46,399 nucleotides of DNA from Phycisphaerae bacterium (GTDB taxonomy: Bacteria; Planctomycetota; Phycisphaerae; Sedimentisphaerales; Anaerobacaceae): positions 1-46,399 of the forward strand of contig JAGOQT010000001.1 of assembly GCA_018007255.1 (NCBI GenBank), in the 5' to 3' direction. Positions 786-41,860 of the stretch are shown one piece after another. Made by a program: the position numbers and the translations under genes. The number at the start of each line of letters is the position of its first letter. The first letter of the stretch is position 1. A model generated the notes under the pieces. The model saw nothing but the letters and a program-made list of their open reading frames with translations, was not told the DNA's origin and searched no databases.

Positions 786-2015
786 CTACTGGGGACATGC
801 AGAACACGGTTTCTGCTGCGCCCACCCCTTATCCTCGGCACACCGACATATGTCGTAACCTAGTTCGTGGAAACACGTCTCCGCTGCCTCACGGGCTCGG
901 TATTCCCCACCATAGCAGTCGCCTATCTCGTTGTACTTCTCCTCCAGGTGGCGATACAGTGGACGGTCAATCTTGCTCTCGAAGAATGCAGCCGCAGCCT
1001 GGCATGTGATCGTGTTGGAATCGCTACAGTTGATCTGAAGTGGGTCCAGATAGCCGCGATCTTCAAGCCAGCCAGGAACGGTGTCCCAGAAATCCGACCA
1101 CTCCTGAACATGGGTACCTTCGTGAATGGCTATGCAGTCAGCGTCACTCACAGCGTAGCATCCTGCATCATCTGGATTACATGGGTCGTAGTATATGAAA
1201 GCTGTGGCATAGGTACAGTAGTTGTCCTTGTTCACGATACCAGGACTGTTACAGTCCCAATCCTGAAAGCGTTGATAACAGACCCCTGCATACATCCTAG
1301 TCCACAGGTCAAAGCGAGGCTCCCATGCACAATCATTGTAGACAGCCTCGTAGTTCTCGGTCTGATAGCCTGGATATGCCTCCCCACAGTGCTTAGAATT
1401 GGCACAATTGGGATCTACTGTACCTAACCACTGCGAATTCACGCCGCCCACCCCTGCCACGCACCCCGCCGGCAACGTCACCGTGACGACTCCTTCAAAG
1501 GTACATGGATCATCATCCCGGTCGCTGTCGTCACAGCCATACCAGGCGGGATCTGGTACATCGTCCACCGTCACACTGAAAACCACTGTCCCTATGCACG
1601 GCGGCGCCCGCCAACCGACCCAGTCGTTCGTGGTATTGGTCAGCCACGTCCCTGTCTGGCAATTCGTTCCAGTAGTCTTGCTCCAACTATACGTCAATGA
1701 ATCAGACTCCTGATCCTCTCCGCCCACGGCATCTTTCCAGCGGTCGTCATCCCAGGCCGTCACACTGTGTTGGGCCGTATTGCATAGGCACGTATCGTAT
1801 ACATTCATGGATCCCTCAATCCCGGTGTCAGGAGTCCAACACTGGCAGTACCCGCAGGAGCACCACCCGTAACCCTCGACACAGGTGGTGCCGCAACTGC
1901 CAGCTGGAGGACAGGTTGTGGACACATAACACTGGCAATCATAGCCACAGTCGCAGCACTCGCCGCAGCCATAGTAGGGCGAACACTCCACACCTGCTTC
2001 CAGTACACAACCCAA
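786..2015 (-). CDS. Cysteine-rich secreted protein with an HExxH zinc-metallopeptidase-like motif and a PKD-like segment. The frame probably continues upstream to 2138 across an in-frame TAG.
   Basis: A 409-codon ORF (track start is a TTG right after a TAG). It contains IAIHEGTHVQEW (HExxH), a dense Cys pattern (CGECCDCGYDCQC...) and LTYSWSKTTG (PKD-like). The same frame upstream (2019-2138) encodes a signal-peptide-like KSGYDGWALTACGILVLSCTMATVA followed by more Cys-rich sequence. Confidence 0.6.
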   Translation of the reverse strand: MGCVLEAGVECSPYYGCGECCDCGYDCQCYVSTTCPPAGSCGTTCVEGYGWCSCGYCQCWTPDTGIEGSMNVYDTCLCNTAQHSVTAWDDDRWKDAVGGEDQESDSLTYSWSKTTGTNCQTGTWLTNTTNDWVGWRAPPCIGTVVFSVTVDDVPDPAWYGCDDSDRDDDPCTFEGVVTVTLPAGCVAGVGGVNSQWLGTVDPNCANSKHCGEAYPGYQTENYEAVYNDCAWEPRFDLWTRMYAGVCYQRFQDWDCNSPGIVNKDNYCTYATAFIYYDPCNPDDAGCYAVSDADCIAIHEGTHVQEWSDFWDTVPGWLEDRGYLDPLQINCSDSNTITCQAAAAFFESKIDRPLYRHLEEKYNEIGDCYGGEYRAREAAETCFHELGYDICRCAEDKGWAQQKPCSACPQ

Positions 2016-2134
2016 CTACCCCGCGTACTCCATACAGTCCGGGCAATCCGGCGGCGGACATGCCACCGTTGCCATCGTGCACGACAAGACCAGTATACCA
2101 CAGGCTGTCAGGGCCCATCCATCGTATCCACTCT

Positions 2135-4315
2135 TCAGTGTCCCGCCCCCTTCCTTGTCAGGAGATCGAGCCTTGTCTGGACCGCCTTCGCCTGTTCATC
2201 CATGGGATCCGCCACGGCCAGGTAGGTCCGGAACAACTCCGCTGCAGCGGTCATCTGGCCCATGCGCTGGTACGTCCCGGCCAGGTGCAGAAGGATGGGA
2301 CGCCACTGCCTGGCCTCGGGATATCTCTCCAGGAACCTCTGGTAGGAGGCGGCCGCCTGCTCCCATTGGCCCTTCTGGGCCTGAATGTGACCCAGCCTCA
2401 GGAGGGCCCCCTGGGCTAGTGAGCAATCCGGATACCCGCCAGCCAGGGCCTCATAGGCCTGCTCGATTCTGGCCTCTGCCTCCAGCATCGGCACCTTGCC
2501 CAGGTCCCTGAGCCTTGCATAGCACGGCCCGATCATGCCCTGGGCACTCCAGGCATACCTGTAGTCAGGCCATTGATCCACCACGTTCTGGTAGTATTGG
2601 ACGGCCTTCTCGTAGTCCCCAAGGTACTTGCGGTACAGCACCCCGCTGAAGTACCAGGCGTCCGCGGCATAGGCAGACTCGGGCAGTCCCGTGATGATCC
2701 GATCCCAGACCACAAGGGTCTTTCTCAAGGAGGCGTTGACCGCATCGTCCGCACCGCCTCTTTGCTTCTTGGCCATGGCCTGGTTGTAGTACTCGTCGCC
2801 CACGCCGAAGACCGCCTCACCCAGGTCAGGGTCGTCTCTGAAATCAGTGATGAGGACGTCTATGGCCTTCTGGACACCAGGATCGTCCTCCCTGGCTGCC
2901 AGCAGCCTAGCCATGCCCGCCCTGGCCCAGATCAACTGTCCATCCCCCTTGGCCGTGTGGTCCAAGACGTGCTTGTAGATCTGCTCAGCCTTGTCCGGCT
3001 TGCCTGCCACAAGGTAGGCATCCCCCAAGCGACACAGCTCTGTAGGCAGGGTCGGCTGGCCTGCAAAGACCGTCATCAGCCGGTTGCCTGCTGCCTCAGC
3101 CTCCTTCTCATTGCCCTCCAGGATCCACGACTTGGCCAGCTCCGTCTGGGACCACATCGCGTACTGGTCGTCCTTTGACGACTGCTCTGCATTGTACTGG
3201 TGCACCTGACGCGCCTGCACAGGCCTCGTCTGCCGATACCGCATGGCCGTATGATACACCTCCTTGGCTGGGGTCTTGTTCTGTGAGAATGCAGCGATCA
3301 GCCGATTAAAGGCCTCCTCCACCGTGGTATTGGCACCGGGCGGGGATTCCTTGTCTAGGATCGCCAGCTGTGCCCTGACCGCTGCGTCGCTGTCAGGCCA
3401 ATGATCCACCACATACTGATAGTACTGCCTGGCCTGCTCAGGCTTGTTGGCCTTGCTGTACGCTATGCCTACCTGGTACGCCTCCTTGGGTAGCGTGGCC
3501 TGATCGGAGAAGACCTGCACCAACCTGCCGAACTCCTGGTCTGCCGCTGCATCGTCGGCCTTGCTGATGGCCGATTTGATGATCTCGACCTGGGAGTACA
3601 TCCCTTGGAGGGCATTGGCGTAGTGCTCCACGTTGTATTGATGGAGCTTGAGGGCAATCTCAGGCTTCCTCACGTTCCTGTAGTGCTTGCCCAGGTTGTA
3701 GATCGTGCCTGCAATGTCCTTGTGCTGGGCAAAGTCTGCCAGGAGGGTGTCCACGGCTGCATTGGCCGCCTTGTCGTCTGATCTCTCCAGGTGGGAGTGG
3801 ATGATATCCCTCTGGCTGTGGACAGCCCACTCGGTGTCCTTCCACCTCCGGATCACGGACTGATAGATCTGCAGGGCCTTGTCGGGTGCCCCTTGGGGTG
3901 GTTTGACGTCCTTGTGTCCTCGGCCGACCTCATACACAGCCTGAGGCAGACCGGCATTCCCTGCAAACCGCTCCAGCATCTGCTGATAGGCCGCCTCGGC
4001 CTGAGAGGTCTTGTTGGCCGCCACATACAGCAAGGCCAGTCCCTTCTGTGCAGCAAGCTGCTGGTCTTGATCCGTGGCCTGCTCCAGCACGGCCTTGTAG
4101 AGCTTCTCCGCCTGGTCGTACTGCCTGCCCTGGACCAGACCCCCTGCCTCCGTAAGCTGCTCCGCCACACCGGCGAAGGCCGAGACCGGCAGCAGAAGCC
4201 ATACAAGACCCATCCAGACTAGATATGAGTGCTTGGGCCAGGCCGTTGATGTCGATCTGCCTCTCGCGCTTGGCCTCCATCCTGCCTGCCGGCGTGCTCC
4301 TTTGCCCTCGCTCAT
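2135..4315 (-). CDS. Membrane-anchored TPR-repeat protein, paralogue 1 (726 aa)
   Basis: ATG at 4315 preceded by GAAAGGAGCC (SD), giving MSEGKGARRQ... A basic N-terminus is followed by a hydrophobic segment, YLVWMGLVWLLLPVSAFAG. Many TPR-like helices follow (AEKLYKAVLEQ, ALQIYQSVIRRW, ARQYYQYVVDHWPDS, AVQYYQNVVDQWPDY). The first ~466 aa are near-identical to the ORF at 14470-16446. Confidence 0.8.
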   Translation of the reverse strand: MSEGKGARRQAGWRPSARGRSTSTAWPKHSYLVWMGLVWLLLPVSAFAGVAEQLTEAGGLVQGRQYDQAEKLYKAVLEQATDQDQQLAAQKGLALLYVAANKTSQAEAAYQQMLERFAGNAGLPQAVYEVGRGHKDVKPPQGAPDKALQIYQSVIRRWKDTEWAVHSQRDIIHSHLERSDDKAANAAVDTLLADFAQHKDIAGTIYNLGKHYRNVRKPEIALKLHQYNVEHYANALQGMYSQVEIIKSAISKADDAAADQEFGRLVQVFSDQATLPKEAYQVGIAYSKANKPEQARQYYQYVVDHWPDSDAAVRAQLAILDKESPPGANTTVEEAFNRLIAAFSQNKTPAKEVYHTAMRYRQTRPVQARQVHQYNAEQSSKDDQYAMWSQTELAKSWILEGNEKEAEAAGNRLMTVFAGQPTLPTELCRLGDAYLVAGKPDKAEQIYKHVLDHTAKGDGQLIWARAGMARLLAAREDDPGVQKAIDVLITDFRDDPDLGEAVFGVGDEYYNQAMAKKQRGGADDAVNASLRKTLVVWDRIITGLPESAYAADAWYFSGVLYRKYLGDYEKAVQYYQNVVDQWPDYRYAWSAQGMIGPCYARLRDLGKVPMLEAEARIEQAYEALAGGYPDCSLAQGALLRLGHIQAQKGQWEQAAASYQRFLERYPEARQWRPILLHLAGTYQRMGQMTAAAELFRTYLAVADPMDEQAKAVQTRLDLLTRKGAGH

Positions 4316-4541
4316 GTCTTGGCTCCTTTCCGACTTTCTGGTGGGCCTTGTGGTAGATACACGCCTGCACGGGACCTGCAAACTGCAGATGCAGCATCCC
4401 CGTGAGGAGAATCCCCTTGCCTGGTGATTGGCCTTCTTGACCTACCCCTCCGCGCGTGATTGCTCCCATACCTTGCCATGGCCTTGGCACCTGCCAGTAG
4501 AGTACGCGCAGAAAGCCTTCTGGCTCCTGGCTTGACCGTAG
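2916..4541. repeat. ~1.6-kb dispersed direct repeat, copy 1 (partner 15047-16665). It covers the -10 box, the leader and the first ~466 codons of the TPR gene.
   Basis: Side-by-side reading of the two regions shows the same offset (12131 nt) from cccgccctggccca (2916 / 15047) to the start codons (4315 / 16446), with one 7-nt indel in the leader. Identity is lost below 2916 / 15047. Confidence 0.85.
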
Positions 4542-4563
4542 TACCCCAGGCGCCGGCTGTGAA
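4316..4563 (-). promoter_or_regulatory. Putative promoter (TTCACA-17-TACGGT) plus a ~210-nt conserved 5' leader of TPR paralogue 1
   Basis: On the minus strand the -35 TTCACA lies at 4563-4558 and the -10 TACGGT at 4540-4535, with a 17-nt spacer. Sequence from the -10 box to the ATG is nearly identical to that upstream of the second TPR gene. Confidence 0.4.
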
Positions 4564-4710
4564 GCAAAGATGGCCATTTCCAGACACACCCCCTTGACTG
4601 CCAAGGCATTACAGGCCGGTCCTGACCGTCCAGATGCCTCAACAAGGTCCCCCATCGTCGGGCTGACCGGCATCTCCTATAGCGCGCCAGATGCACCCGG
4701 GTGGGCCGCC

Positions 4711-7700
4711 TTACCTTGCGTCGAGCACCTTGGACGGAGTGGTCGGCTTGGGCTTGACTCCAGGCCAATCCTGGTATCCCTGGAACTCCTGCTCGTGTTG
4801 CTCAAACGAGGCCCGGTCTCGATCCGAGATCCGCTTCAGGTCCTCTTGAGTCCCGGCCACGGCCTCCGCAGGCCGGATCACCTCCGCACGCACAAAGACG
4901 TACAGCTTGCTCTGTACGTCGCTGTTGGAGATCCCCCGAAACGCCCCGCCCACCAGCGGCAGATCGCCCAGGATCGGTACCTTGGTCCCTCCCTTGGACT
5001 GATTCAGCTTGAGCATGCCCCCCAGGATGATGGTACTTCCATCCGGGACCGTCACTACGGTCTTGACGTCGCTGGCAGTCAGGTCAGGGGGCCTGTCCCG
5101 CGTGATCGTCCCAAAGTCCGACCGGGTCAAGGTGATCTCCAACCTGAGCAGCTGGCCCTCGCTGATGTGCGGGGTGATCTCCATGGTGATCCCAGCCTCG
5201 TACGACTGGTAGTCTATGGCCGTCTCGATCAGGTTGGTCTGCTGGCCCGCTGTCCCGGAGGTGACCGGGATCGAGGACTTCTTCTCCACGTAGGTCGTGT
5301 CCGTGGTCTTGATGATCCCCTTCTCGTTGTCCGGGTGCCCTCTGGGCGAGGACCTTGGGCTTGGCCAACACCCGACCGTAGTTCTTGGTCTGCATGGCCG
5401 TCAACAAGGCATTGATGTGCAGGTCCGCGTAGAAGCCCGTGCCTGCCCCGGAGTTGGCCTGGAAGTCGATGAACTGGCGCAGCGAGCCGGGCTCCAGGAG
5501 CTTCTCCGGCACGGTGGTGTCCTCATCGACCATGAACGACCCGGTCTGGCCGCTGGTCTGCCGCATGTCCGGCAGGCTCCCCACCAGGTTTAGGTCGTAG
5601 TTGAACTGGTCGCTCTTGCGGATCTCCACCAAGGTCACGTCAATGAGCACCTGGGGACGCCTGCGGTCCAGGGTCCTGATGAGCTTGCTGATCCACTCCT
5701 GGTTCTCCCTGCTGCCATACACCACCAGCGAGAACGTACCCTTGTCCGGCACGATCAGGATCTCGTCCTCGAGTCTGCGAACGACCTGCTCAACCTTGGC
5801 CTCCTTGTCCTTGACCGTCTCCGCAATGAGCCTGCCCAGGACCTCTGCCAGGGCCTCGGGGTCCTGGTTCTCCAGGAAGTAGATCTCGTAGGGGATGGCC
5901 TCCTGCCTGACCTGGGCATCCACGCGCTGGATGACCCGGGAGATCTGCGTGTGCGCAAACTCCGTGGCATTGATCAGCAGCGAGTTGGTGGACTCCAGTA
6001 CAGAGACCTGGGTCTCCTGGAGCAGGGCGGACTCATCGGCAGGACCATCGCCCGCCCCGGCTGGGGCGGGGGACGTGGACCCAGGGGCCTGCACCGATGC
6101 AGGGCTGGTCGCCGGCCTGGCCTTGTCCCCTATGAATCCAAACTCCTCCAGCTTCTTCTTGACCTCAGAGGCGTCCACGTACCGGATGTCATAGGTCTTC
6201 AGGATCCGCAGGTCCTCAGGGGCCACGTCCACCTGGGCCAGGACGGTCCTGATCCGGCCGTGCTGCTGGGCCGTGGCGTTGATCAGGAGGGAATTGGTGG
6301 ACTCCAACACCGTGACCTGGGTCTCCTGCAGGATGACCCTCTCACCCTTATCTCGGGATCCACCCTCGGTCTTGGAGCTGAACAGTGAGGTCGCACCTGG
6401 TCCTGAGGGATCCGGCCCAGCCTTGCCCAGCACGTCCAGGTCCTCCAGCTTCCTCTTGGCCTGGCCAGCGGTCATGTGCACGATCGCGTAGGTCTTCAGG
6501 CTCCGCAGGTCGCTCTGCTCCACGTCCAGGGCGTCGATGACCTCTTCCACGATTGCCAGTTGATCGGCCTGACCGATCATCAGGAGCCGGTTGGTCCTCT
6601 CATCCACATCCAGGTACACGGTGTCCTTCTCAGTCGACTCCAACGGCGTTGGGCTTGTACCTGTGCCCAGGGAGGACCTCGGAGCCGGCGCCCCGCCGGA
6701 CAGGAGAGAGGGGGTCGCGGGCTTGTCCGTTGCCCCACCTGGGGAGGTGCCGGAAGAGGCGGCCGTGACCCTGACCGGCACGGTCTGAAGCTCTGCTGCC
6801 AGGGCCTCGACCTTGGTAGCCAGGCTCCCTGCCATGGTGTAGCGCAGGGGCCTGTACCGAAACTCCCTGGCCCTGCCAGGCCGGTCCACCAGGTCCAGCA
6901 ACTGCTCGATCCTGGCCATGCGGTACGCATAGCAGGTCACGATCAGGGTGCCCGTCTCTGCTATCGGAGAGGCCGATACGCTGAGCTTGAGGTTGTTGAG
7001 CAGGTTCATGGCACTGGCGGTGTTCACGTGCCGAAGGCTGAAGACCCGCGTGACCACCATGTCTCCTGCCGTCATGGTTGCACCATCGGGGCCTACCAGG
7101 GCAGGGTCCACGTCCAGGGCGTCTGTGACCGGCACGATCGTGACCAGACCAGCCCTGTGAGATGTCATGGCCAGGCCTTTGAACTTCAACACAGACTCCA
7201 GGAGTGCATACAGGTCCTTGACCCTGACCTGGCCCTGGAGCTTGCCGTGCAGGCGCAGGGAGACCGACTGGCCCTTGAGCTTCTCGGGGTCGAACAGGTA
7301 GTCCAGGCTCAGGTACTCTGCAGCCAGGTCCAGCAACTGGGTCATCTCCAGGCGGTCAGGCAGCTCCAGCTCCAGGATATCGTCCCCGTTGGCCAGGGTG
7401 GGCCCATCGAATGTGACAGAGGTCTGAGGCTCTGCAGGCAGGTCTGCCTGAGCACGTGCCTGGCGTGCAGGTCCCTGCGACATGGCCGTCTGCTCCGGCT
7501 CGTCCACAGAAGGATCGGTGCGTGCAACCGGTGGCTGGGCGATCCGAGAGATGGCTTCCTCCGCAGGGGCGTTACCCGCCTTGGGGTCTCCGGCCTTGGC
7601 CTGAGCCGCAGTCGCGGGCTCCTGCTTGGGCTGGGTCCGGACAACGGGCTGGACCGGCAACGGAGAGACAGGCTCAGAGGGGATGGGAGTCGGCTGCTGA

Positions 7701-8254
7701 ACTGTATCACCTCTGGCCTGGCGCAGGGCTGCAGGGCCTGCCTCCATCAGGATGGCCAGGTCCTCCTGGAATCGGCCAGGGATGATGGCCACAACCGAAT
7801 CACCGTGGATGTCGATGATCCCTCGTGCAGCAGCCGTTCCTGGAGGCAGCGCAGCAAAGGTCCCAATGGAGATGCCGCCCAGGGCCTTGGCAATCTGGTC
7901 GTTGGTCGCGAGCCCCCTGGCAGCAGACAGCGGGGCAACAGTCTGAACTACGTATGGCTCATCAGAATCGATCAAGTCCAGGACGATCCTTGCCTTGTGC
8001 ACCGTCTCAGTAGGACCGGTGACGGTAACGGCGACGACAGAAGAGACCTCGACCGTGCCCAGGCCAAGGTCGGCCAGGACCTCCTTGGCGCGGTCGGGTG
8101 CAATGGCCTTGAGCACGAAGACCTTCCGTTCCTCCAGCAGAGGCTTGGTACCTTCAGGTGCGGGTCCTTGGACGCAGCCGCAGAAGAGCAGGACTGCGGC
8201 AATGACTGCTGCCTGCCCCTCCCTACGTCGATGAGGTGTACCTCTGCACACCAT
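4711..8254 (-). pseudogene. Secretin (GspD/PilQ superfamily, ~1180 codons) with its reading frame interrupted by one extra nucleotide near 5320-5345
   Basis: Two track ORFs (5084-8254 and 4711-5289) together make one secretin. ATG 8254 follows AGGAG, giving the lipoprotein-like signal MVCRGTPHRRREGQAAVIAAVLLFCGC. Three secretin-N-like repeats are present (..LESTNSLLINAT..). The frame-A text ends sensibly at ..NYGRVLAKPKVLA and then becomes Gly/His/Asp/Arg-rich nonsense. The frame-B text resumes with DNEKGIIKTTDTTYVEKKSS...VPILGDLPLVGGAFRG...LYVFVRAEVIRP, the canonical secretin C-domain. Total length is 3544 nt = 3n+1. Confidence 0.75.
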
Positions 8255-8293
8255 GCTCGTCTCCTGGTGACTATCCAGGTACCCAGGGGCTGG

Positions 8294-8932
8294 TCACTCC
8301 TCGCCATCCGGATATGTCCCGGATCGCGGCTCTTCCGGCAGCACTGGATAGCCGGAGGATGACACCTGCTTGTTGCCGGACCGGACCTGCCGGACCAAGG
8401 TCCTCTGCGCGGGACTCCGTTCCAACGAGATCTCACGGATCTGCTGGCCATCACGGCTGCGGACAACCACCATGCCGCGTCTGACCTCCTGAACCACCCA
8501 CGGGCCGACCTGGGAGTCCTTCTTCACCCATCTGCCCGCCCCCTCTGCGCTGGCAGATTCGACGATCAGGGCCATGGACCGATCCGGTTGGCCTGGATAC
8601 AGGCTTATCGCCTGGACCGTGAACTTCACCGATGAGACCACAGGTCTTATCGGTGGATGGTCGGACTGTCGGACTGTCGGACTGTCCGACCGTCGGACAG
8701 ACAGAGCTGGATTCAGGGTGGCCGCAAATGCCTGCGCGTGTGCCACCAGCGGGGAGATACTGCCTTCAGAGCCGTCCGCCCTCCCGCTGTTTGCGCGTCC
8801 TCTCTGCTCTGTCACGCTCGGCAGGGTACAGACCCGCTCGGCGTCGTTGGCCGGCCTTGGGCGACACGTCTCCACCAAGACCCACGCAGTCCCGATCCAT
8901 GCAAGGATACTAGTGCCGTGTAGAAGGTGCAT
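8294..8932 (-). CDS. GspC/PilP-like secretin-associated inner-membrane protein (212 aa). The start is uncertain; a TTG at 8977 is the alternative.
   Basis: MHLLHGTSILAWIGTAWVLVETC is an N-terminal hydrophobic anchor. The C-terminal segment VKFTVQAISLYPGQPDRSMALIVESASAEGAGRWVKKDSQVGPWVVQEVRRGMVVVRSRDGQQIREISL matches the pattern of GspC-HR/PilP beta-sandwich domains. The gene ends 39 nt upstream of the secretin start. Confidence 0.45.
   Translation of the reverse strand: MHLLHGTSILAWIGTAWVLVETCRPRPANDAERVCTLPSVTEQRGRANSGRADGSEGSISPLVAHAQAFAATLNPALSVRRSDSPTVRQSDHPPIRPVVSSVKFTVQAISLYPGQPDRSMALIVESASAEGAGRWVKKDSQVGPWVVQEVRRGMVVVRSRDGQQIREISLERSPAQRTLVRQVRSGNKQVSSSGYPVLPEEPRSGTYPDGEE
8661..8700. 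repeat. Octanucleotide tandem repeat (tcggactg x3 perfect plus 2 imperfect units) inside the GspC/PilP-like CDS
   Basis: tcggactg occurs at 8661-8668, 8669-8676 and 8677-8684. It is followed by tccgaccg and tcggacag. Together these encode ..SVRRSDSPTVRQSD.. on the minus strand. Confidence 0.9.
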
Positions 8933-9017
8933 CACGACCCCTTGAATCCAAATGCGAGATGGTTCCCCCTTGGTCAACTGATCCCCACAACAAGCGGTTG
9001 ATCCATCTATCCAAATG

Positions 9018-10385
9018 TCAGGGCATCTGGTCTTCCAGCCAATGCCCGGCTAGTATAGCCACGTCCTTCAGGTCCACCCGGCAGTCGCCGTTGATGTCGC
9101 CGGCAATAATCGTCTCACATACGGGCTTGCCAAAGTACGACTTGCTGGCCTCGGCTGTTCCGCCGTAAGCGCCCATGTTGATCCTGCCCCCGTTGGGGAA
9201 GGGCTCAGGCCCTACGGGACTGAGCGGGTCCCCTGCATCGATGCACGGACTTGTGACCTGGTCCTGAACCCAGGTCTTGCTGACAGAGTCCCACCTGCCT
9301 GCCTGAGACTTGAGGTGGTAGTCACCGTCGACCCAGAAGTCATCGCTTAGCTTGTCTGGAGTCCCATTGGGATCCCAGTGGCCTGGATCCACGAAATGAG
9401 GATCGCCTGTAGTCCAATGCCCGTGAGCACGTTCATGAGGATCATATAAATCATTTGGATCGTCTCCTATGAGGCTGTACCCAACTTGCAGTTCCATTGG
9501 CCATAGAATTCCAACATCAGGCAGCGCGATGTCATTGCCAAGAAGGCCCGCAGTATTACGCCACACAATGGAATTGTACAAGTGGGATATATCGTCGCCG
9601 TCCGGTCCGCAGGATATCCCACCGCCTAGGCCTTCCTTGCCTATTCGGTTTCCGGTCACAGTACAGTTGACGAACTGATGGCTCCCGCGACAATAGATGC
9701 CTCCGCCTTGGTGTGTGGCGATATTCCCTACGACCAGACAATTCAGCACTCGGGCATTCTCGCGGTGGAGGCTCATTCCTCCACCTCTGTCGTACCCGGT
9801 CCAACTTGCCACATTCCCCATGATGATGCAATTCTCTACCCGGACATCCGACTGATAGGCGGCAATTCCCCCGCCATCCCTTGCCGCATTACCTATGATG
9901 ATGCAATCCCTTATCGTAGGACTGCTCTCCATGCAGTAGATAGCGCCTCCATCGTGAGGCCCCATATACCCTTGTGTCACTGTCAAACCCTCAACGACGG
10001 AATTAGCGTCTTCGTGGGAGTGAAAACTAAAACCCCGATGGTACTCTGGATCGATCTTTTGGGGCGGGCCGTAAGAGGGGTAACGTCCACCGCATTGGAT
10101 GATACAGGATTCAGGACCTACTTCACTTTTGAGGATGATCGCCTTGCCCTTGAAGTCAATGTCGCGGTTGCCTTCACCTGCGTAGGTACCAGGGGCAACT
10201 ATGACGGTATCGCCGTCATTGGCGTCATCGATGGCCGCCTGAATAGTCAAGCACTCTGAGGGAACCATGATTACCGTCGCTTGGCTTGCGCAGCACACAA
10301 TCAAACAGAGCAATACATTCACAATCCTGTTCACCGCCGATATGGAAGGACTTTCTCCGATTCCCACAGCCATTCCTCCTTTCAT
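9018..10385 (-). CDS. Secreted right-handed parallel beta-helix repeat protein with a C-terminal dockerin-like Ca-binding repeat (455 aa)
   Basis: The ATG at 10385 overlaps the upstream TGA (ATGA). The hydrophobic N-terminus is NRIVNVLLCLIVCCASQA. The protein contains TVIVAPGTYAGEG and repeated NC(I/L/T)(I/V)xGN turns (NCIIMGNVA, NCLVVGNIA, NCTVTGNRI). The C-terminus is GDINGDCRVDLKDVAILAGHW. Confidence 0.75.
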   Translation of the reverse strand: MKGGMAVGIGESPSISAVNRIVNVLLCLIVCCASQATVIMVPSECLTIQAAIDDANDGDTVIVAPGTYAGEGNRDIDFKGKAIILKSEVGPESCIIQCGGRYPSYGPPQKIDPEYHRGFSFHSHEDANSVVEGLTVTQGYMGPHDGGAIYCMESSPTIRDCIIIGNAARDGGGIAAYQSDVRVENCIIMGNVASWTGYDRGGGMSLHRENARVLNCLVVGNIATHQGGGIYCRGSHQFVNCTVTGNRIGKEGLGGGISCGPDGDDISHLYNSIVWRNTAGLLGNDIALPDVGILWPMELQVGYSLIGDDPNDLYDPHERAHGHWTTGDPHFVDPGHWDPNGTPDKLSDDFWVDGDYHLKSQAGRWDSVSKTWVQDQVTSPCIDAGDPLSPVGPEPFPNGGRINMGAYGGTAEASKSYFGKPVCETIIAGDINGDCRVDLKDVAILAGHWLEDQMP

Positions 10386-11575
10386 CTTGTCCCTTGTGGT
10401 TTTGCCTCTGATGGTCTCGCGTCTGATCCCGCTTCCGTCGTGACATTCACCCTGTATTTGCTACTGTTGTTACGCCACCACTCGAGGCATTCGGATCGGG
10501 TGGCACCTTTCGGCAATTGAGAGGTGAGGCTTCTCTTGAATGGGTTTTCGCGGACAGGCAGCACCATCTGCGGCACATAAGATACAAGCGAGCCGTCACC
10601 TTTCTCTATCCGCTCCATGATATATGGAAGCGAGGCCAAGCCCCCTCGTGTCATTTCCTCAAAGAGCCGCTTTTCTGAGGTAGCCCCAAAGCCTTCACGT
10701 CCCTTCTCACTTCGGCGATTCCATACGGCATACATTTCCGCAGCGTGTTTTTGGGCAAATTCCCCTCCCTTGCGGCTCCAATGCTGCCAAAGAGTCAAAT
10801 AGACCTTATCAGCCGACAACTCTCCCAATTCAGGGAAGTCCGCAACACAATATGTACGCTGTCCACTGATATACTTCACGGGGAAGCGGGCATGAGTCAG
10901 GTCTTCCAGACAACGATGCACTCTATAGTCCAATTTCCCCATATTAGAGGCATGTTGAATCAATGGATTAGCGGCTCGGATATCGCCAAGAAGAGCCAAA
11001 GCGTATGCGGCATACTCATATCGTTGCCCCAGCGTTGGCAAATCGCGGATGATCGGGTCAATTGCACGAGTATCTCCCAGATAACCCAATGCCAGGATAG
11101 CGTAATCCGCGAGGATGTATTGTTGTCGATCCTCTCGCGGATTGCCTGATACCCTGCCTGGGACATTAGGCTTCTCGATGGCTTCAATCAGAGGCTGAAA
11201 AGCCTGCTGGTCTCCTATAGCACCAAGGCTTAAGGCAGCATAACAACGGGCAATATGGAAATATATGCCTTCTGTATCCCCGAATAGACTATCTCTTGTC
11301 CAGTTAGGTTCACCACGCACGACAGCAACAAGAAAAGAGACAGCATCTTTACTGTCAAGCCCCTTTGTAGGCTGAAACCGAGGCTCCGACGGAGAGGCAA
11401 CGGGAAAATATACCAAGTTGAACCCTGCCCGACCGCTCCCGGCGGCTTTGACCGCTGTCTCCAGTAAGAAGGGAAACTCCATACTTGCGTGGCCATCCTG
11501 GCACCATCCTCTGGTTACACACATAAGAACGATAAAGACAACCAGGCCAGGACATGTCCATCTATTGTCATGCAT
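10382..11575 (-). CDS. Exported HEAT/PBS-lyase-like repeat protein (397 aa)
   Basis: ATG 11575 is preceded by GAAAGGA. The signal-like N-terminus is MHDNRWTCPGLVVFIVLMCVTRGWCQD. Repeats: ALSLGAIGDQQAFQPLIEAI, ALGYLGDTRAIDPIIRDL, ALALLGDIRAANPLIQH. Confidence 0.7.
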   Translation of the reverse strand: MHDNRWTCPGLVVFIVLMCVTRGWCQDGHASMEFPFLLETAVKAAGSGRAGFNLVYFPVASPSEPRFQPTKGLDSKDAVSFLVAVVRGEPNWTRDSLFGDTEGIYFHIARCYAALSLGAIGDQQAFQPLIEAIEKPNVPGRVSGNPREDRQQYILADYAILALGYLGDTRAIDPIIRDLPTLGQRYEYAAYALALLGDIRAANPLIQHASNMGKLDYRVHRCLEDLTHARFPVKYISGQRTYCVADFPELGELSADKVYLTLWQHWSRKGGEFAQKHAAEMYAVWNRRSEKGREGFGATSEKRLFEEMTRGGLASLPYIMERIEKGDGSLVSYVPQMVLPVRENPFKRSLTSQLPKGATRSECLEWWRNNSSKYRVNVTTEAGSDARPSEAKPQGTR

Positions 11576-11596
11576 TTGCTATCCTTTCAGTGCTAT

Positions 11597-11625
11597 AGTA
11601 TAGCTAATCGCTCGTTTTGCTACAA
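11597..11625 (-). promoter_or_regulatory. Possible internal promoter (TTGTAG-17-TATACT) in the AT-rich PAD-HEAT gap
   Basis: On the minus strand TTGTAG lies at 11625-11620 and TATACT at 11602-11597, with a 17-nt spacer. This is the only AT-rich gap inside the operon. The call rests on hexamer matching only. Confidence 0.25.
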
Positions 11626-11632
11626 TATAAAA

Positions 11633-14473
11633 CTAGTCCCACCAATTGTTACTTGGGATGGTACGTATGGCATTCGTACCACAATGAATCTCGCCTCCGC
11701 CTCCAGACGTTCCGCCATGAAGCGGCCAACAGTCTACAAAACCGCTGAAGGGAGAATTGATCTTGAACACATCCACACCATTTGCGGTTCTTGGACCATA
11801 AGGATTCGGTACATGTAAGCTCCCGCCCGAATTCAGCAGATTCACCATGCCAGGTAGAAGTGCACTGGCGGACCAATTCTGATCAAACAAGGCTGGTACA
11901 CTCGCAAAAGTCGTAATGGACGTCTGCTGTAATAGCAGATTTCTTAGATCTGAAATACGTGAGGGCCAAGCTTGCTGAACGCCACTATAGGCATTCCATA
12001 AGTCCCTAATCGCCATACAAACAGGGGCGCCTTCTGAACCTCCATCGTACACATGCCCAAACGCAAAGTTTCTTTTGCTCTTCTTGACCAGAATATATCG
12101 GCATTCGTAGGGATCTCCATTCCAGGTCCCATCAATGGTTACACTGTTTGAAGTGTTTGAGACTATCCTCTTCTTCTCTGGGTTTATCTCAAAGCCCCCC
12201 TGTGTTGCGGTGTAAATGATCACATACCCATCACTCCAGTCTACCTGAGACCAGTCATGTAATCCCGATCCATCTCTGAAAGTACTATTACTAACTGTCT
12301 CAGTTACAACCCCGAAATCCTCTGGACCTTCACAGAATACAGTTCTGAACTCGGAGCGAGCAACAAGTGTGTATCTCCATCGATCCGGATAGTTGACAGG
12401 ATCAGGAATAGGATCCCAAAGACGCCCTTTGCTCGTTAGGTTATCATAAACATAGACTCTTGTGGCATCACTATGGACGATTTCACGTACCTCGATTTGC
12501 CAATACCATAGATCGATGATCTCGACATACCCTCCGGCCCATTGATCTGTCGACCAGGTTGCTGTCGAGATCTCTATGTATTGAGAAGCAGCCCCTGTAA
12601 TCAAGCCATTGGCCTGTGTGTTGTTATTGATGAAGTTCTCGACAAGCGAGATGCCCAAGTCAACATCCACAATGTAGGCAGACGTGCCATTGAAGCTCAC
12701 CAATTCATCAATGTGGCCCACGCTAAGATATCCCGTCTGTGGTGATACAATCACAGACTGAACACCCTGTGCTGCAATGAAGTTGGTAATGTCACCACTG
12801 CATCCCGTTCCAACAACGACATGTTCATCTGCTACGGCCTCAATATTTCCACCATAATCGTATTTTGGGTTTCCCGAACCAACGGTGAAGACACCTACAC
12901 TGGGTGCCAATAGGCTATTGGGCCAGGAGTCTAACGCCCTACCTTGACGCGGCAAGTCCATTACCACGTGCATTTGGCCTCCCGGCCACTTGGTGTAGCC
13001 GATTTCGGCAGCATCCTGTAGCCACGGATCTCCTGCATAAGTTGTGCCAAGATCCATACTTACAATACTAGTCCCCACTGCGGCAATGTCATCGTCTTGG
13101 TCTGAGTCACTCCGATCTGGTGAATAGACCACTTCAGAGGAAGCATAACCAGGCAAAAGAATGAACGGCGACGATCGAAGCTTCACTACTTCATCCGTAA
13201 AAACGCTTCCTCCACCCTGATCTTGAATTCTCAGTCTAAGATAACACGCCTCTCCCACGGAATTAGAGAATCGATAGGCCTCAATATACCAATTCAAGGT
13301 ACTGCCTATGACAGTGGTCACTTCAAGGCTATTCACCCACGACCAACTCCCGCCATTACAGACGAATCCAAGCACATGCACAGATCCCCCCGCTCCAGGA
13401 GTATCACCGTCGAAAACCTGCATAAATGCATTCTGGCTGTATTCTGTGATCAGGTTCCCCGAATCATCGACGATCTCAGTAAAGGCTTTCCAGCCTGTCG
13501 GCAAGGAGGTCTCGCGAATCTGTACCGGTAGAAGATCAGTCAAGTCAGCACTGCCATCTATGTGCCCGTTGTCACAGTCCTTCTCGGCGGGCGTGCCGGG
13601 ATCGTCATCATCGATGTTCACCGGCACAATCGCCGCTTGAGTCTCCTCCAGGTCCTCCTCCGCCGGTGTTCCGTCGACGGTTCCATTATGGTTGGAATCC
13701 ACATCGATGTCCACTTGGATAACGCTGATGAGATGGGAATCAGTGAAGGACCTTCGACGCGGAATCGTCAACTGAATGACCGCCGTGTAGGTACCAGGCG
13801 CAGCCCGTGTCCCATCATTCTTCTTCCCATCCCAGGTCGTCTGTTGCGGCCCCAACCCATCACCCAATCGTATGCTTTTTATCGTGGCGCCCGATTGGTC
13901 CTTGATCAACAGGTCCGCCACCCACCGCAGATAGTAACGCAGCCTGTTGTTGTTCGGCAAGATCGTGTAGTAGATATCGGCTGGAGTACTGCTCTGATAT
14001 GCCATGTACTCAGCCGTATCACGATTCGGCGGATCGTCATCAATGGATACTGCAATCACATAGACCTCCGCGTAGTCATCGTCAGTCAGCCCATAGCTGT
14101 TCTCGGCCTCTACATCGACCTTATAGGCCCAAGGCGTAACAAACGAGAGGTTCCTGAGCGAACTGGCATAATAACCCTCTTGGTCGTATCCCCCATCGTG
14201 CTCAATGGGATCCGGTGGTGGATTCGTTGAAACCCAATAGCCGCTGAATGGTCCCCAGTCTACCCACCTCTGCCATTGCCAATCCCAGTCCTGGATATAG
14301 GTCCCGGACCAGTCCTCCGCCTCAATGCTCAGATGCTCGCCTGGTCCTACACAATGCAGCCAATCGGAGATCCAGACCTCTGGTGGCAACGGCCAACCAC
14401 AGCATAGGCTCGCTGTTGTGCAGACGGATACTGCCATCAATGCCAGGGTTTTGAGTATTCCTTTCGCTCTCAT
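11633..14473 (-). CDS. Secreted protein-arginine deiminase (PAD) family homologue with an N-terminal FlgD-Ig-like region (946 aa)
   Basis: The ATG at 14473 overlaps the TPR2 stop (ATGA). The signal-like N-terminus is MRAKGILKTLALMAVSVCTTASLCC. TWDGKKNDGTRAAPGTYTAVIQL resembles FlgD-Ig. VNIDDDDPGTPAEKDCDNGHIDGSADLTDLLPVQIR parallels the human PAD4 middle domain ([35 protein letters not shown]). DPWLQDAAEIGY (12995-13024), DYGGNIE, LSVGHIDELVSF (12701-12721), LPGMVNLLNSG and EIHCGTNAIR (Cys codon 11681-11683) parallel DRWIQDEMELGY, DSFGNLE, LAVGHVDEFLSF, FPDLVNMLVLG and EVHCGTNVCR of PAD4 as I recall it. Confidence 0.8.
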   Translation of the reverse strand: MRAKGILKTLALMAVSVCTTASLCCGWPLPPEVWISDWLHCVGPGEHLSIEAEDWSGTYIQDWDWQWQRWVDWGPFSGYWVSTNPPPDPIEHDGGYDQEGYYASSLRNLSFVTPWAYKVDVEAENSYGLTDDDYAEVYVIAVSIDDDPPNRDTAEYMAYQSSTPADIYYTILPNNNRLRYYLRWVADLLIKDQSGATIKSIRLGDGLGPQQTTWDGKKNDGTRAAPGTYTAVIQLTIPRRRSFTDSHLISVIQVDIDVDSNHNGTVDGTPAEEDLEETQAAIVPVNIDDDDPGTPAEKDCDNGHIDGSADLTDLLPVQIRETSLPTGWKAFTEIVDDSGNLITEYSQNAFMQVFDGDTPGAGGSVHVLGFVCNGGSWSWVNSLEVTTVIGSTLNWYIEAYRFSNSVGEACYLRLRIQDQGGGSVFTDEVVKLRSSPFILLPGYASSEVVYSPDRSDSDQDDDIAAVGTSIVSMDLGTTYAGDPWLQDAAEIGYTKWPGGQMHVVMDLPRQGRALDSWPNSLLAPSVGVFTVGSGNPKYDYGGNIEAVADEHVVVGTGCSGDITNFIAAQGVQSVIVSPQTGYLSVGHIDELVSFNGTSAYIVDVDLGISLVENFINNNTQANGLITGAASQYIEISTATWSTDQWAGGYVEIIDLWYWQIEVREIVHSDATRVYVYDNLTSKGRLWDPIPDPVNYPDRWRYTLVARSEFRTVFCEGPEDFGVVTETVSNSTFRDGSGLHDWSQVDWSDGYVIIYTATQGGFEINPEKKRIVSNTSNSVTIDGTWNGDPYECRYILVKKSKRNFAFGHVYDGGSEGAPVCMAIRDLWNAYSGVQQAWPSRISDLRNLLLQQTSITTFASVPALFDQNWSASALLPGMVNLLNSGGSLHVPNPYGPRTANGVDVFKINSPFSGFVDCWPLHGGTSGGGGEIHCGTNAIRTIPSNNWWD

Positions 14474-16446
14474 GGCTGGCTTCCCTCCTTGGATACATTG
14501 CCACGGGCGTATTCCAAGTATTTTCTGGCCGCGGGGACACCTGGGCTTGACGGATACAGCTCCAGCAAGTGCCTGTATGCCTCGGTAAGGGTAGATTCTG
14601 CCTTGCCCCTGGCCTCCGGGTCCGAATCCATCTCTGATCGCAACAACATTTCTTTGTACATCTTGACGATCCGATGCTGGGCCATCCAGGCATATTCATA
14701 CTCCGGCCAAGTCTCCACGATCTTCTGATAGTACGGCATGGCCTTCTCATCCTGCCCCAACAGCCGGTAGGTCTCCGCCGCCATATGATAGGCCTGGGCC
14801 GTGATGAGAGACGAAGGCAGCTCCCTGATGATCCTCTCCCAGATGACCAAACCCTTCTCGAAGTTGTCATCTGCCTTGTCCTTGCGGCCAGCCTTGTTCT
14901 CAGCCAGGGCCTCTGACCAGTATTGCTCCCCAACACTGAACACCACCTTGGACAGGTCCGAATGGTCTTTGAAGTCAGTAGTCATGGCATCCAAGGCCTG
15001 CTGGCCTGCCGTATCATTACCCTTGGCAATCTCCAGCTTGATAAGACCCGCCCTGGCCCAGATCAACTGTCCATCCCCCGTGGCCGTGTGATCCAGGACG
15101 TACTTGTATATCTGCTCGGCCTTGTCGGCCTTGCCCGCTTGAAGGTAGGCATCCCCCACCCGGCATAGCTGCGTGGGCAAAGTAGGCTGGCCTGCAAAGA
15201 CAGTCATCAGCCTGTTGCCTGCCGCCGCAGCCTCCTTCTCATTGCCCTCCAGGATCCACGACTTGGCCACCTCCGTCTGCGACCACATCGCGCACAGGTC
15301 GTCCTTGGACGACTGCTCTGCATTGTACTGATGGACCTGCCGGGCCAAGATAGGTCGGCTCTGCCGATACCGCATCGCCGTATGATACACCTCCTTGGCT
15401 GGGGTCTTATTCTGTGAGAATGCAGCGATCAGCCGACTAAAGGCCTCCTCCACTGTCGTATTGGCACCTGCCGGGGATCCCTTGTCTAGCATCGCCACCT
15501 GTGCCCTGACCGCTGCGTCGCTGTCAGGCCAATGATCCGCCACATACTGATAGTACTGCCTGGCCTGCTCAGGCTTGTTGGCCTTGCTGTAGGCTATCCC
15601 TACCTGGTACACCTCCTTGGGCAGGGTCGCCTGACCGGAGAAGACCTGCACCAGCCTGCCGAACTCCTGGTCTGCCGCTGTGTCGTCGGCCTTGCCGATG
15701 GCCGATTTGATGATCTCGACCTGGGAGTACATCCCTTGGAGGGCATTGGCGTAGTGCTCCACGTTGTACCGATGGAGCTTGAGCGACATCTCAGGCTTCT
15801 TGAGGTTCCTGTAGTGCTTGCCCAGGTTGTAGATCGTGCCTGCGATGTCCTTGTGCTGGGCAAAGTCCGCCAGGAGGGTGTCCACGGCTGCATTGGCCGC
15901 CTTGTCGTCTGATCTCTCCAGGTGGGAGTGGATGATATTCCTCTGGCTGTGGACGGCCCACTCGGTGTCCTTCCACTTCTGGATCACGGACTGATAGATC
16001 TGCAGGGCCTTGTCGGGTGCCCCTTGGGGTGGTTTGATGCCCTTGTATCCTCGGCCGACCTCATACACAGCCTGAGGCAGACCGGCATTCCCTGCAAACC
16101 GCTCCAGCATCTGCTGATAGGCTGTATCCGCCTGAGAGGTCCTGTTGGCCGCCACATACAGCAGGACCAGGCCCTTCTGTGCAGCCAACTGCTGGTCCTT
16201 GTCGGTAGCCTGCTCCAGCACGGCCTTGTAGAGCTTCTCTGCCTGGTCGTACTGCCTGCCCTGGACCAGACCCTCTGCCTCCGTGAGCTGCTCAGCCACA
16301 GCGGCGAAGGCCACAAACGGCAGCAGAAGTAATACCAGACTGATCCAGGCTAGATATGAGTGCTTGGGCCAGGCTGTTGATGTCGATCTGCCTCTCTCGC
16401 TTGGCCTCCATCCTGCCTGCCGGCGTGCTCCTTTGCTCTCGCTCAT
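14470..16446 (-). CDS. Membrane-anchored TPR-repeat protein, paralogue 2 (658 aa)
   Basis: ATG 16446 is preceded by GAAAGGAGCC. MSESKGARRQ...YLAWISLVLLLLPFVAFAA is near-identical to paralogue 1 up to ..GDGQLIWARAG, after which the TPR-like C-terminus diverges. Confidence 0.8.
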   Translation of the reverse strand: MSESKGARRQAGWRPSERGRSTSTAWPKHSYLAWISLVLLLLPFVAFAAVAEQLTEAEGLVQGRQYDQAEKLYKAVLEQATDKDQQLAAQKGLVLLYVAANRTSQADTAYQQMLERFAGNAGLPQAVYEVGRGYKGIKPPQGAPDKALQIYQSVIQKWKDTEWAVHSQRNIIHSHLERSDDKAANAAVDTLLADFAQHKDIAGTIYNLGKHYRNLKKPEMSLKLHRYNVEHYANALQGMYSQVEIIKSAIGKADDTAADQEFGRLVQVFSGQATLPKEVYQVGIAYSKANKPEQARQYYQYVADHWPDSDAAVRAQVAMLDKGSPAGANTTVEEAFSRLIAAFSQNKTPAKEVYHTAMRYRQSRPILARQVHQYNAEQSSKDDLCAMWSQTEVAKSWILEGNEKEAAAAGNRLMTVFAGQPTLPTQLCRVGDAYLQAGKADKAEQIYKYVLDHTATGDGQLIWARAGLIKLEIAKGNDTAGQQALDAMTTDFKDHSDLSKVVFSVGEQYWSEALAENKAGRKDKADDNFEKGLVIWERIIRELPSSLITAQAYHMAAETYRLLGQDEKAMPYYQKIVETWPEYEYAWMAQHRIVKMYKEMLLRSEMDSDPEARGKAESTLTEAYRHLLELYPSSPGVPAARKYLEYARGNVSKEGSQP

Positions 16447-16665
16447 ACCGTGGCTCCTTTCCGATCCTCTGGTGGGCCTTGTGGTAGATACGCGCCTGCA
16501 CGGGACCTGCAAACTGCAGATGCAGCATCCCCGTGAGGAGAATCCCCTTGCCTGGTGATTGGCCTTCTTAACCTACCCCTCCGCGCGTGATTGCTCCCAT
16601 ACCTTGCCATGGCCTTGGCACCTGCCAGTAGAGTACGCGCAAAAACCCTCCTGAGTCGACCGTAG
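15047..16665. repeat. ~1.6-kb dispersed direct repeat, copy 2 (partner 2916-4541)
   Basis: See copy 1. The same boundaries are found by direct comparison. Confidence 0.85.
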
Positions 16666-16686
16666 GGCTTTACCAGCTAATGTCAA
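16447..16686 (-). promoter_or_regulatory. Putative promoter (TTGACA-16-TACGGT) plus a ~205-nt conserved 5' leader of TPR paralogue 2
   Basis: On the minus strand TTGACA lies at 16686-16681 and TACGGT at 16664-16659, in the only AT-rich stretch of the 670-bp gap. The leader is almost identical to 4316-4528. Confidence 0.45.
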
Positions 16687-38554: not shown

Positions 38555-38578
38555 AATTGAGGGCGGCCGGGCCGAGGG

Positions 38579-40457: not shown

Positions 40458-40476
40458 GAGGTCCTTTCACGCGATC

Positions 40477-41841: not shown

Positions 41842-41860
41842 GTTCTGTTCCCCGAGCCTG

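Follow-up and report, generated by a model that had tools for sequence, protein, structure and literature searches.

Do two closely similar tetratricopeptide repeat (TPR) genes, each followed directly by the gene of a putative secreted enzyme and lying on either side of a secretin gene, belong to an export system in which TPR proteins select the cargo? This question is raised by a stretch of 46,399 nucleotides (nt) from a Phycisphaerae bacterium (contig JAGOQT010000001.1, positions 1 to 46,399), which we analysed at its full length and refer to as the window. A preliminary description of the window had seen a duplicated cassette of leader, anchored TPR protein, coupled secreted enzyme and exported HEAT-repeat protein around a secretin and a GspC-like gene, and had proposed that the TPR proteins are adaptors which feed different enzymes to this secretin. 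Planctomycetota have a huge secretome and a poorly understood envelope. Our own reading, which we hold with moderate confidence, is that an envelope operon particular to the lineage of Phycisphaerae/Sedimentisphaerales-type Planctomycetota has been rearranged here and has decayed in part; its core is a TPR protein with its exported partner, and the mechanism behind it is probably that of an adaptor. The locus as found here is accessory, recombining and partly dead, and annotating it as a functional secretion system would be wrong.

The gene layout was checked by open reading frame (ORF) listing and translation of the minus strand of the window, and all the ORFs of the gene order given in the preliminary description were found. 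The features discussed below are the following, with protein lengths in amino acids (aa):

16447..16653, minus strand: upstream copy 2, the putative promoter edge and 5' leader (about 190 nt) of TPR2; 94.7% identical to 4316-4522
14470..16446, minus strand: TPR2, exported multi-TPR protein, 658 aa, chimeric, with a short-type C-terminus (Pfam TPR families)
11633..14473, minus strand: predicted PAD-family arginine deiminase, 946 aa, with signal peptide (PF03068, 1.1e-24); its ATG overlaps the TPR2 stop (ATGA)
10382..11575, minus strand: HEAT1, exported HEAT-repeat protein of PBS-lyase type (HEAT_PBS, 1.9e-13)
9018..10385, minus strand: exported beta-helix protein, third member of a trio with the two preceding genes (DUF1565, Disaggr_assoc and Chlam_PMP matches)
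8294..8932, minus strand: candidate GspC/PilP-like protein (from position and homologues); hydrophobic helix at the N-terminus, conserved domain at the C-terminus
4711..8254, minus strand: pseudogene of a GspD-type secretin (lesion at 5332-5347, Pfam domains in two ORFs)
4316..4522, minus strand: upstream copy 1, leader of TPR1 (from identity to copy 2)
2135..4315, minus strand: TPR1, exported multi-TPR protein, 726 aa, long type with a C-terminal extension (Pfam TPR families)
786..2138, minus strand: gene of a Cys-rich gluzincin-like (HExxH...E) exoprotein, inactivated (CTG at 2138-2136, TAG at 2018-2016)
1..663, minus strand: HEAT2, 5' part, cut by the contig end (from translation; 1-54 is an artefactual inverted repeat)

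TPR genes and their overlapping partners

The evidence for a TPR-partner core comes mainly from the relatives of the two TPR proteins. The family comprises about 40 clusters, and the few with a source name belong to Phycisphaerales or Sedimentisphaerales metagenome-assembled genomes. We read the genomic contexts of ten family members, which is in line with the check proposed in the preliminary description, namely to look for further copies of the TPR N-terminal domain and for the genes downstream of them. In 7 related loci the ORF of an exported partner overlaps with the TPR stop, and the overlap reads ATGA in L014, L015, L021, L009, L010 and L017. The TPR protein of L014 is 45% identical; its gene overlaps by 4 nt with that of a Cys-rich protein homologous to the HExxH protein (33%, 9e-29, with signal peptide), and a HEAT protein comes next. 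In L015 the overlap, again of 4 nt, is with the gene of a 230-aa Cys-rich protein, behind which lie the genes of a 356-aa protein and a DUF1573 Ig protein. The longest series is found in L021, where a TPR gene, a 4-nt overlap, a Cys-rich 402-aa protein, a 323-aa protein, a DUF1573 protein, a GspC-like protein (40% identity) and an intact 1187-aa secretin follow each other on a single strand. The DUF1573 proteins of L015 and L021 are 52% and 50% identical to the one downstream of HEAT2. Other kinds of partner exist as well: L016 has an overlapping partner with Big_7 and beta-helix, and in L011 a CarboxypepD_reg protein follows the TPR gene after a gap of 64 nt.

In L009, L010 and L017 the partners were found only by reading all six frames, which gave Cys-rich ORFs of 246-376 aa with 49-62 Cys and ATGA at the TPR stop (L009:12013-13140, L010:12109-13047 and L017:~5908-6624). 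The gene callers had missed these ORFs and had annotated short ORFs in the wrong frame or on the wrong strand instead. The Cys-rich partner class may be systematically under-annotated, and we draw attention to it as an exoprotein family that is often overlooked by gene callers. The partners share the mature N-terminus A|CPPPxCxxCxYWD directly after the signal peptide, and their C-terminal domains vary. No Pfam, NCBIfam or PDB matches were obtained for the partner and third-position proteins of the related loci. Taken by their sequences, these contexts indicate that the TPR-partner pair with overlapping stop and start is a conserved unit, and that an operon form with DUF1573, GspC-like and secretin genes exists, as seen in L021.

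TPR1 contains four YbgF/CpoB-like units (TIGR02795, 108 bits against a cut-off of 90) and also matches the BamD-like model TIGR03302 (83 bits, cut-off 81). Its signal peptide ends in AFA|G, the window sequence reading AFA|GVAEQ. The other family members likewise begin with ordinary cleavable Sec signal peptides, such as ...PALA|DVS, with AxA-type sites and mostly without a lipobox. The hydrophobic segment that had been taken for a membrane anchor is therefore better seen as a cleavable signal peptide, and the label of an anchored TPR protein is unsupported.

The C-termini of the TPR proteins can be used to ask whether they relate to the partner. An alignment of the C-termini from 10 loci shows an extra TPR pair and the tail ...P.D.RI...L in all seven TPR proteins that have a Cys-rich partner, and in none of the three with another partner (TPR2 with the arginine deiminase, L016 and L011), which end earlier, with A..AR.WL.R. 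The C-terminus of TPR1 is 66% identical to that of P0006, and the best matches of the TPR2 C-terminus are not TPR1 but P0025, P0028 and P0030, at 38-43%. TPR2 is thus a chimera of a TPR1-like N-terminal part of about 480 residues and a short-type C-terminus. The variation is that of two conserved subtypes with homogenised N-terminal parts. The variable, cargo-matched C-terminus of the preliminary description holds in that it tracks the partner class, and does not hold as free variation. Since the C-terminus follows the partner class, the adaptor idea survives. We also considered whether foreign DNA begins within TPR2. The GC content at third codon positions (GC3) is 0.75 for TPR2, and 0.75-0.77 for the TPR genes together. 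It stays at about 0.72-0.87 over most of TPR2 and is still 0.64 in the last window, against 0.52 in the deiminase gene, which places the main break at the junction between these two genes.

The core shown by these loci is an exported protein in which CpoB/BamD-like TPR units are repeated, together with a secreted partner whose gene starts in ATGA overlap with the TPR stop. As a rule this partner has a Cys-rich module after the signal peptide and then a variable C-terminal domain, here the gluzincin-like HExxH domain. The gene of an exported helper comes next, a HEAT-repeat protein in this lineage, and DUF1573, GspC-like and GspD-type secretin genes follow in at least one relative. In the mechanism we propose, the TPR protein would serve as a periplasmic chaperone or docking scaffold specific to a partner class, translational coupling could set a fixed ratio of TPR protein to exoprotein, and the long C-terminal extension would recognise the Cys-rich module. 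Passage through the outer membrane would use a secretin of the type II secretion system (T2SS) kind, encoded elsewhere in this strain if export persists, and HEAT proteins would be enzyme-specific accessories inherited with their enzymes. If the pair is such an adaptor-cargo unit, it would add a new step, the selection of cargo, to what is known of secretin-dependent export in Planctomycetota. A more far-reaching version would be an undescribed Phycisphaerae export pathway, in which a TPR adaptor made in fixed ratio through ATGA reads the CPPPxCxxC module and hands the cargo to a dedicated GspC-like/GspD-like conduit, with subtypes that allow the capture of foreign enzymes such as the arginine deiminase. 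We consider this version unlikely.

The duplicated segment

Self-BLAST of the whole window located the duplication as one long repeat between 2788-4522 and 14919-16653, with 89.9% identity over 1735 nt and zero gaps. The repeat consists of the 207 nt 5' of each TPR ATG and about 509 codons, which contain 55 synonymous and 74 non-synonymous differences. At the protein level, TPR1 and TPR2 are 85-97% identical up to residue ~440, 70% at 441-480 and 42% at 481-520, and the C-terminal part is 36% identical, with homology retained (E 5e-24). The upstream segment and the first ~480 TPR codons are duplicated at about 90% identity, which confirms the near-identity of the TPR N-terminal parts noted earlier. 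Of the duplicated cassette, only this segment remains: the enzymes show no relationship to each other, nor do the two HEAT proteins come from the same family. No similarity of HEAT1 to HEAT2 or to HEAT3, a further HEAT gene beyond the contig end, was detectable in sequence comparison, and the HEAT protein has to be dropped as a common cassette member. The 4-nt junctions described for both copies were also re-examined. ATGA at 14473-14470, formed by the TPR2 stop and the deiminase start, is present, whereas in the CTGA at 2138-2135 the CTG sits at the position where relatives have ATG. We infer that the two-copy state came from duplication and/or gene conversion.

The two upstream segments had been described as a shared promoter box with a leader of about 200 nt. 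Their identity is borne out, as a core of ~175 nt has only 2 differing positions; a signal of RNA structure and conservation in relatives are not. An Rfam search of both leaders gave zero matches. The fold of copy 1 (window 4310-4500, the only one compared with shuffles) showed no excess stability (z = +0.63), and the leader could not be aligned to the upstream regions of 7 relatives. On these three results we rejected the leader as a riboswitch or attenuator and take it to be simply the 5' end of the duplicated segment. A simple promoter scan of the leader region detected nothing. By eye, TACGGT is common to both copies, with TTGACA or TTCACA 16-17 nt before it, and the homology begins near this TACGGT box.

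One route to the present gene order would be that an operon like that of L021 was duplicated in tandem, after which one copy had its cargo replaced and the other lost the GspC-like gene and the secretin, although alternative paths could lead to it as well. A simpler explanation would be coincidence, with paralogous TPR genes homogenised by gene conversion beside unrelated secreted-protein genes that share no function with them. The confinement of the homology to the 5' part of the TPR genes and the upstream segment fits this idea. So does the occurrence of the deiminase trio as a unit without a TPR gene, and Planctomycetota commonly have HEAT and TPR proteins that are exported. Coincidence would not lead us to expect, however, that ATGA coupling to an exported partner is kept across TPR proteins which are only 33-45% identical, nor that the C-terminus correlates with the partner class, and we find this explanation improbable.

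The secretin and its upstream gene

The preliminary description had listed the secretin as a single ORF from 8254 to 4711. This ORF is in fact split into one at 5084-8254, with five Secretin_N stretches (3e-38), and one at 4711-5289/5400, with the Secretin domain PF00263 (6.8e-29, in 4711-5289). The cause is a lesion at 5332-5347, where 16 nt (GCCCAGAGGGCACCCG) stand in place of GTCAAC of L020, a net gain of 10 nt. In about 115 secretin homologues the site reads LAKPK[VIL]LVNDN, apart from rare variants with a single residue changed. Through the lesion the invariant LVNDN motif is lost and the reading frame shifted, so that no intact frame runs through the gate and beta-barrel region. Intact orthologues have 1150-1200 aa, with more than 490 matches at 55% identity over 99% of the length. 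An error of a single base in a homopolymer was considered, as deleting one C restores a frame of 1180 aa, but was rejected because comparison with the ~115 homologues reveals a 16-for-6-nt replacement. The identical lesion is found in L001/L008 and L002, which are independent JGI contigs from other samples. This replacement, repeated in independent assemblies, argues that the gene is a true pseudogene and that the secretin is inactivated in this genome, as far as its sequence tells. An explanation of L002 as a strain variant with indels was discarded, since the differences are runs of N.

With an inactivated secretin, feeding enzymes to the neighbouring secretin cannot work in this strain. The adaptor hypothesis of the preliminary description therefore loses this part, and keeps the coupled TPR-partner unit and the partner-class C-terminus.

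The best NCBIfam match of the secretin is GspD (TIGR02517), under its cut-off. Together with the multiple Secretin_N stretches and PF00263, and with a small hydrophobic-helix protein conserved directly upstream, this resembles the outer-membrane module of a T2SS. The resemblance has its limits. The secretin, a pseudogene here, measures ~1180 aa and has long linkers, none of the GspC or PilP models matches the protein upstream of it, and the L021 operon also holds a TPR-exoprotein pair and a DUF1573 gene. The lack of GspE/F/G in the window, which had already been remarked, was confirmed: Pfam scans of the remaining genes found no GspE/F/G-K, so the window does not hold a complete T2SS locus. 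Pseudopilin genes lie near the TPR locus in L009 only, on the opposite strand.

For the upstream gene, the GspC/PilP identity given earlier could not be confirmed, as the protein had zero matches among Pfam, NCBIfam and PDB profiles, including any GspC or PilP model. Homologues with 40-41% identity are located directly upstream of the intact secretins in L020 and L021, and a C-terminal block of ~70 aa is conserved. A short tandem repeat at 8600-8660 (CAGTCCGA units) encodes a repeated linker of SD.PTVRQ type, in which L002 has one single nucleotide polymorphism. In the secretin, two pairs of direct repeats with a spacing of ~300 nt (5962-6528, 73-80%) reflect tandemly duplicated Secretin_N-type domains.

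The position of the TPR genes raises the question whether they are secretin assembly factors. TPR pilotins and accessory proteins such as PilF/PilW/Tgl (for PilQ), TadD (for RcpA) and MshN are periplasm-facing and encoded near a secretin. The proteins studied here could be pilotin- or accessory-like in the manner of PilF/PilW/Tgl or TadD, and the adjacent enzymes unrelated passengers. Like those proteins, they are periplasm-facing TPR proteins encoded near a secretin; both the window and L021 have TPR genes as neighbours of a secretin and a GspC-like gene, and their likeness to BamD/CpoB is a likeness to outer-membrane-associated periplasmic TPR proteins. A TPR protein working with a secretin is described for TadD and RcpA (PMC10499894). 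Several observations speak against this explanation, though. Seven related TPR loci have no secretin in the available downstream sequence (~2 to 10 kb), and L020, which has a GspC-like gene and a secretin, lacks a TPR gene in its 3.8 kb of available upstream sequence. A pilotin would be expected to be an outer-membrane lipoprotein with a lipobox Cys, about six TPRs and an obligate association with a secretin gene. The TPR proteins instead have AxA cleavage sites, mostly no lipobox and 600-750 aa, about three times the ~250 aa of pilotins, and lie near a secretin in 2 of about 10 lineages. Moreover, the conserved overlap is with the ORF of a coupled exoprotein and not with the secretin. We regard a role as assembly factors as doubtful.

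The HExxH partner of TPR1

The partner gene of TPR1 has two lesions. It carries CTG at 2138-2136, where relatives carry ATG, and an in-frame TAG at 2018-2016, where the homologue P0173 has Tyr. P0173, which is 51% identical to the HExxH protein, reads MKGRHDGWALTAC...CMVYAGYLGCVL, with Met and Tyr at the two lesion sites. The segment before the TAG, VACPPPDCPDCMEYAG*, still fits the A|CPPPxCxxCxYWD pattern of the partner N-termini. When the ORF is read from TTG 2015 there is no signal peptide. The signal-peptide-bearing enzymes claimed for both cassettes thus reduce to the deiminase, the HExxH gene being lesioned. Comparison with its relatives indicates that the HExxH gene, like the secretin, is inactivated in this genome.

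We flag the HExxH proteins as a new family, with 58 cluster representatives. H298, E299 and H302 are invariant in 29 family sequences, and E371 is conserved in at least 90% of them. Sequence searches of PDB, Pfam and NCBIfam gave no matches. With the family alignment as input, an AlphaFold model reached a pLDDT of 86 (35 from the single sequence) and predicts Ig-like beta-domains followed by a helical HExxH domain. The HExxH and E371 sites lie on the predicted helices 292-310 and 370-395, giving the modelled protein the gluzincin arrangement of a helical HExxH and a downstream Glu on a second helix. When the whole model was searched against the PDB with Foldseek, matches were confined to the Ig-like N-terminal domains, with none for the HExxH domain. 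On this model the protein may be read as having a gluzincin-like domain of undefined specificity.

The following gene, HEAT2, is complete in L008, where it encodes 293 aa (L008:13686-14567, HEAT_2 at 9e-5) and is 38% identical to the HEAT protein that comes after the HExxH homologue in L014.

The arginine deiminase trio

The partner of TPR2 scores well above the cut-off of PF03068 (87.7 bits, cut-off 25), with an additional FlgD_ig match, and aligns to the middle and catalytic domains of human PAD2/3/4 (E 3.5e-17). In this alignment it keeps the motifs WLQDAAEIGY, VGHIDEL and GEIHCGTN. WLQD, GHIDE and HCGTN, which were compared with PAD2, we take to correspond to the PAD4 residues D350, H471, D473 and C645. 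Score and motifs together place the protein as a predicted member of the PAD family, with the catalytic Asp, His/Asp and Cys motifs of bacterial and animal PADs. It differs from these in having a signal peptide, an N-terminal FlgD-Ig region, an insert of ~250 aa in the catalytic domain and conserved HEAT and beta-helix neighbours. Bacterial PADs are rare and were found in 0.76% of species, in cyanobacteria, actinobacteria and proteobacteria (PMC8826395). Our protein collection contained only eight clusters of relatives. The protein is worth flagging as a rare, predicted secreted bacterial PAD with conserved HEAT and beta-helix companions. A 'C...PPP' motif that would join its N-terminus to those of the Cys-rich partners was tried and rejected, as the motif (PP.V.ISDW) is part of the N-terminal domain that characterises the PAD family itself.

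The same three genes are found together in L018, where the gene of a PAD homologue (P0046, 51%) comes first, then that of a HEAT_PBS protein with 49% identity to HEAT1, and third that of a beta-helix protein with 63% identity to the one in the window. The L018/L019 trio is on a contig of 44% GC, with no TPR gene upstream and an integrase gene within about 6 kb. GC3 is 0.52 for the deiminase, 0.49 for HEAT1 and 0.59 for the beta-helix gene, against 0.86-0.93 for housekeeping genes. The low GC3 and the TPR-less homologous trio suggest that the trio is an independent unit, which was probably acquired horizontally and is now found behind TPR2. Its conservation without a TPR gene also suggests that HEAT1 belongs with the enzyme and not with the TPR system. 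The beta-helix gene, by its place in the trio, appears to be part of the TPR2 cassette. A dockerin-like character had been noted for its product, and Pfam gave no support for a dockerin at E<=0.01. Upstream of the trio in L018 (L018:3667-8732) are a phage-integrase-family gene, a TIR and AAA protein and a large WD40 protein. This suggests that the L018 trio is located in a mobile or defence-rich island.

An enzyme gene paired with a HEAT gene is found three times in the locus, as PAD-HEAT1, HExxH-HEAT2 and, beyond the contig end, FGE-HEAT3, and two of these pairs are conserved elsewhere. This leads to the hypothesis of polymorphic effector cassettes, in which a Cys-rich delivery module carries swappable enzyme or toxin domains, the next gene encodes an inhibitor or immunity protein, and the TPR gene is a recombination anchor and chaperone. 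The partners are indeed conserved at the N-terminus and variable in the C-terminal domains (HExxH, Ig-rich or Cys-repeats only), and low GC3, an IS110 fragment and truncated genes are found close by. Yet no known toxin or immunity families were detected, and a PADLOC search for anti-phage defence was empty but for a HEAT-repeat match of HEAT2, itself marginal (E 2.7e-4). In L009, L010, L015, L017 and L021 the partner gene is not followed by a HEAT gene, the deiminase has no Cys-rich module, and no orphan cassettes or arrays were seen. We give this hypothesis little credence.

Comparison with known systems

The nearest relatives of the TPR proteins by profile are CpoB (YbgF) and BamD, whose models TIGR02795 and TIGR03302 are matched above cut-off and with which they share TPR_6-type repeats. 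CpoB has a single C-terminal TPR unit after a coiled coil and is encoded in the tol-pal cluster. The window protein has at least four tandem units instead of one, a Cys-rich exoprotein partner and no tol-pal or bam context. The concept of a TPR protein encoded beside an exported partner and specific for it is also known from type III class II chaperones and SctY, and a weak SctY match was found (25 bits, cut-off 70). Those chaperones are small and cytoplasmic, however, whereas the TPR proteins here carry Sec signal peptides and would, if they act at all in this way, do so in the periplasm. Literature searches on Sedimentisphaerales with secretin, and on DUF1573 with secretin, found nothing relevant. 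The families of the parts (TPR, GspD, PAD, HEAT) are known, and the TPR-exoprotein coupling with its occasional secretin link was not found in the literature searched. We agree with the preliminary description that the arrangement is unfamiliar: it matches no described system that we found, being neither a pilotin, CpoB/BamD, a complete T2SS nor a defence system.

Several points weigh against the reading of the region as an envelope operon with a TPR adaptor. Four-nt gene overlaps are common in bacteria generally. The correlation of C-terminus and partner comes from 10 loci only, some of which are close kin (L009, L010), so that they are not phylogenetically independent. The seven loci with no secretin downstream count here as well, and the 2 lineages of about 10 loci in which a secretin is near are few for a secretin-dependent unit. 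The leader is another difficulty. Its core (4316-4497 and 16447-16628, ~175 nt) is ~99% identical and the adjoining coding sequence ~90%, with the TPR coding identity dropping gradually towards the 3' end from 97% to 86%, 78% and 63%. A plain duplication fails to explain a leader that is more conserved than the coding sequence; the excess could be due to a recent conversion tract or to selection on regulation. Finally, duplication, conversion and replacement could have taken place in more than one order and direction.

Contig end and flanking sequence

The window begins at a contig end, where 1-54 is the reverse complement of 108-161, and the sequence of L008 continues normally at this place. 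Owing to what looks like a hairpin artefact the HEAT gene at 663-1 is truncated in the window. L008 runs on beyond window position 1 with, in this order, the complete HEAT2, a DUF1573 gene, two FGE-sulfatase genes of which the second is full, HEAT3 and a weak fragment of an IS110 transposase. HEAT3 is a HEAT_2 protein and a paralogue of HEAT2. Both FGE-sulfatase-domain genes (L008:16140-19751) encode exported proteins, and the first is truncated at profile position 157 of 255. The truncated gene and the IS110 fragment are further signs that the locus is decaying and mobile.

The terminal inverted repeat raises the question whether the duplication or the gene lesions are themselves artefacts of assembly or sequencing. 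A second discordance is found in L006, where 136 unrelated nt (L006:1987-2122) replace 189 nt of TPR2 (window 14867-15056) at the edge of the duplicated block; this stretch might come from a recombinant variant, or the contig may be a chimera assembled across the repeat. But the two copies differ at 10% of positions, and the whole arrangement is 100% identical in a separate JGI contig of 114.9 kb (L001/L008). The secretin lesion is present in L002 too, from another sample, and is a 16-for-6-nt replacement and no homopolymer slip. We think an artefact very improbable.

The rest of the window contains housekeeping and polysaccharide-synthesis genes. A large polysaccharide cluster on the same strand at 31179-44585 has genome-typical GC and is unrelated to the TPR cassettes. 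It encodes a sugar transferase, GT4 enzymes, a hexapeptide acyltransferase, a flippase, a Wzy-like polymerase, a TMEM260-like protein and a dehydratase.

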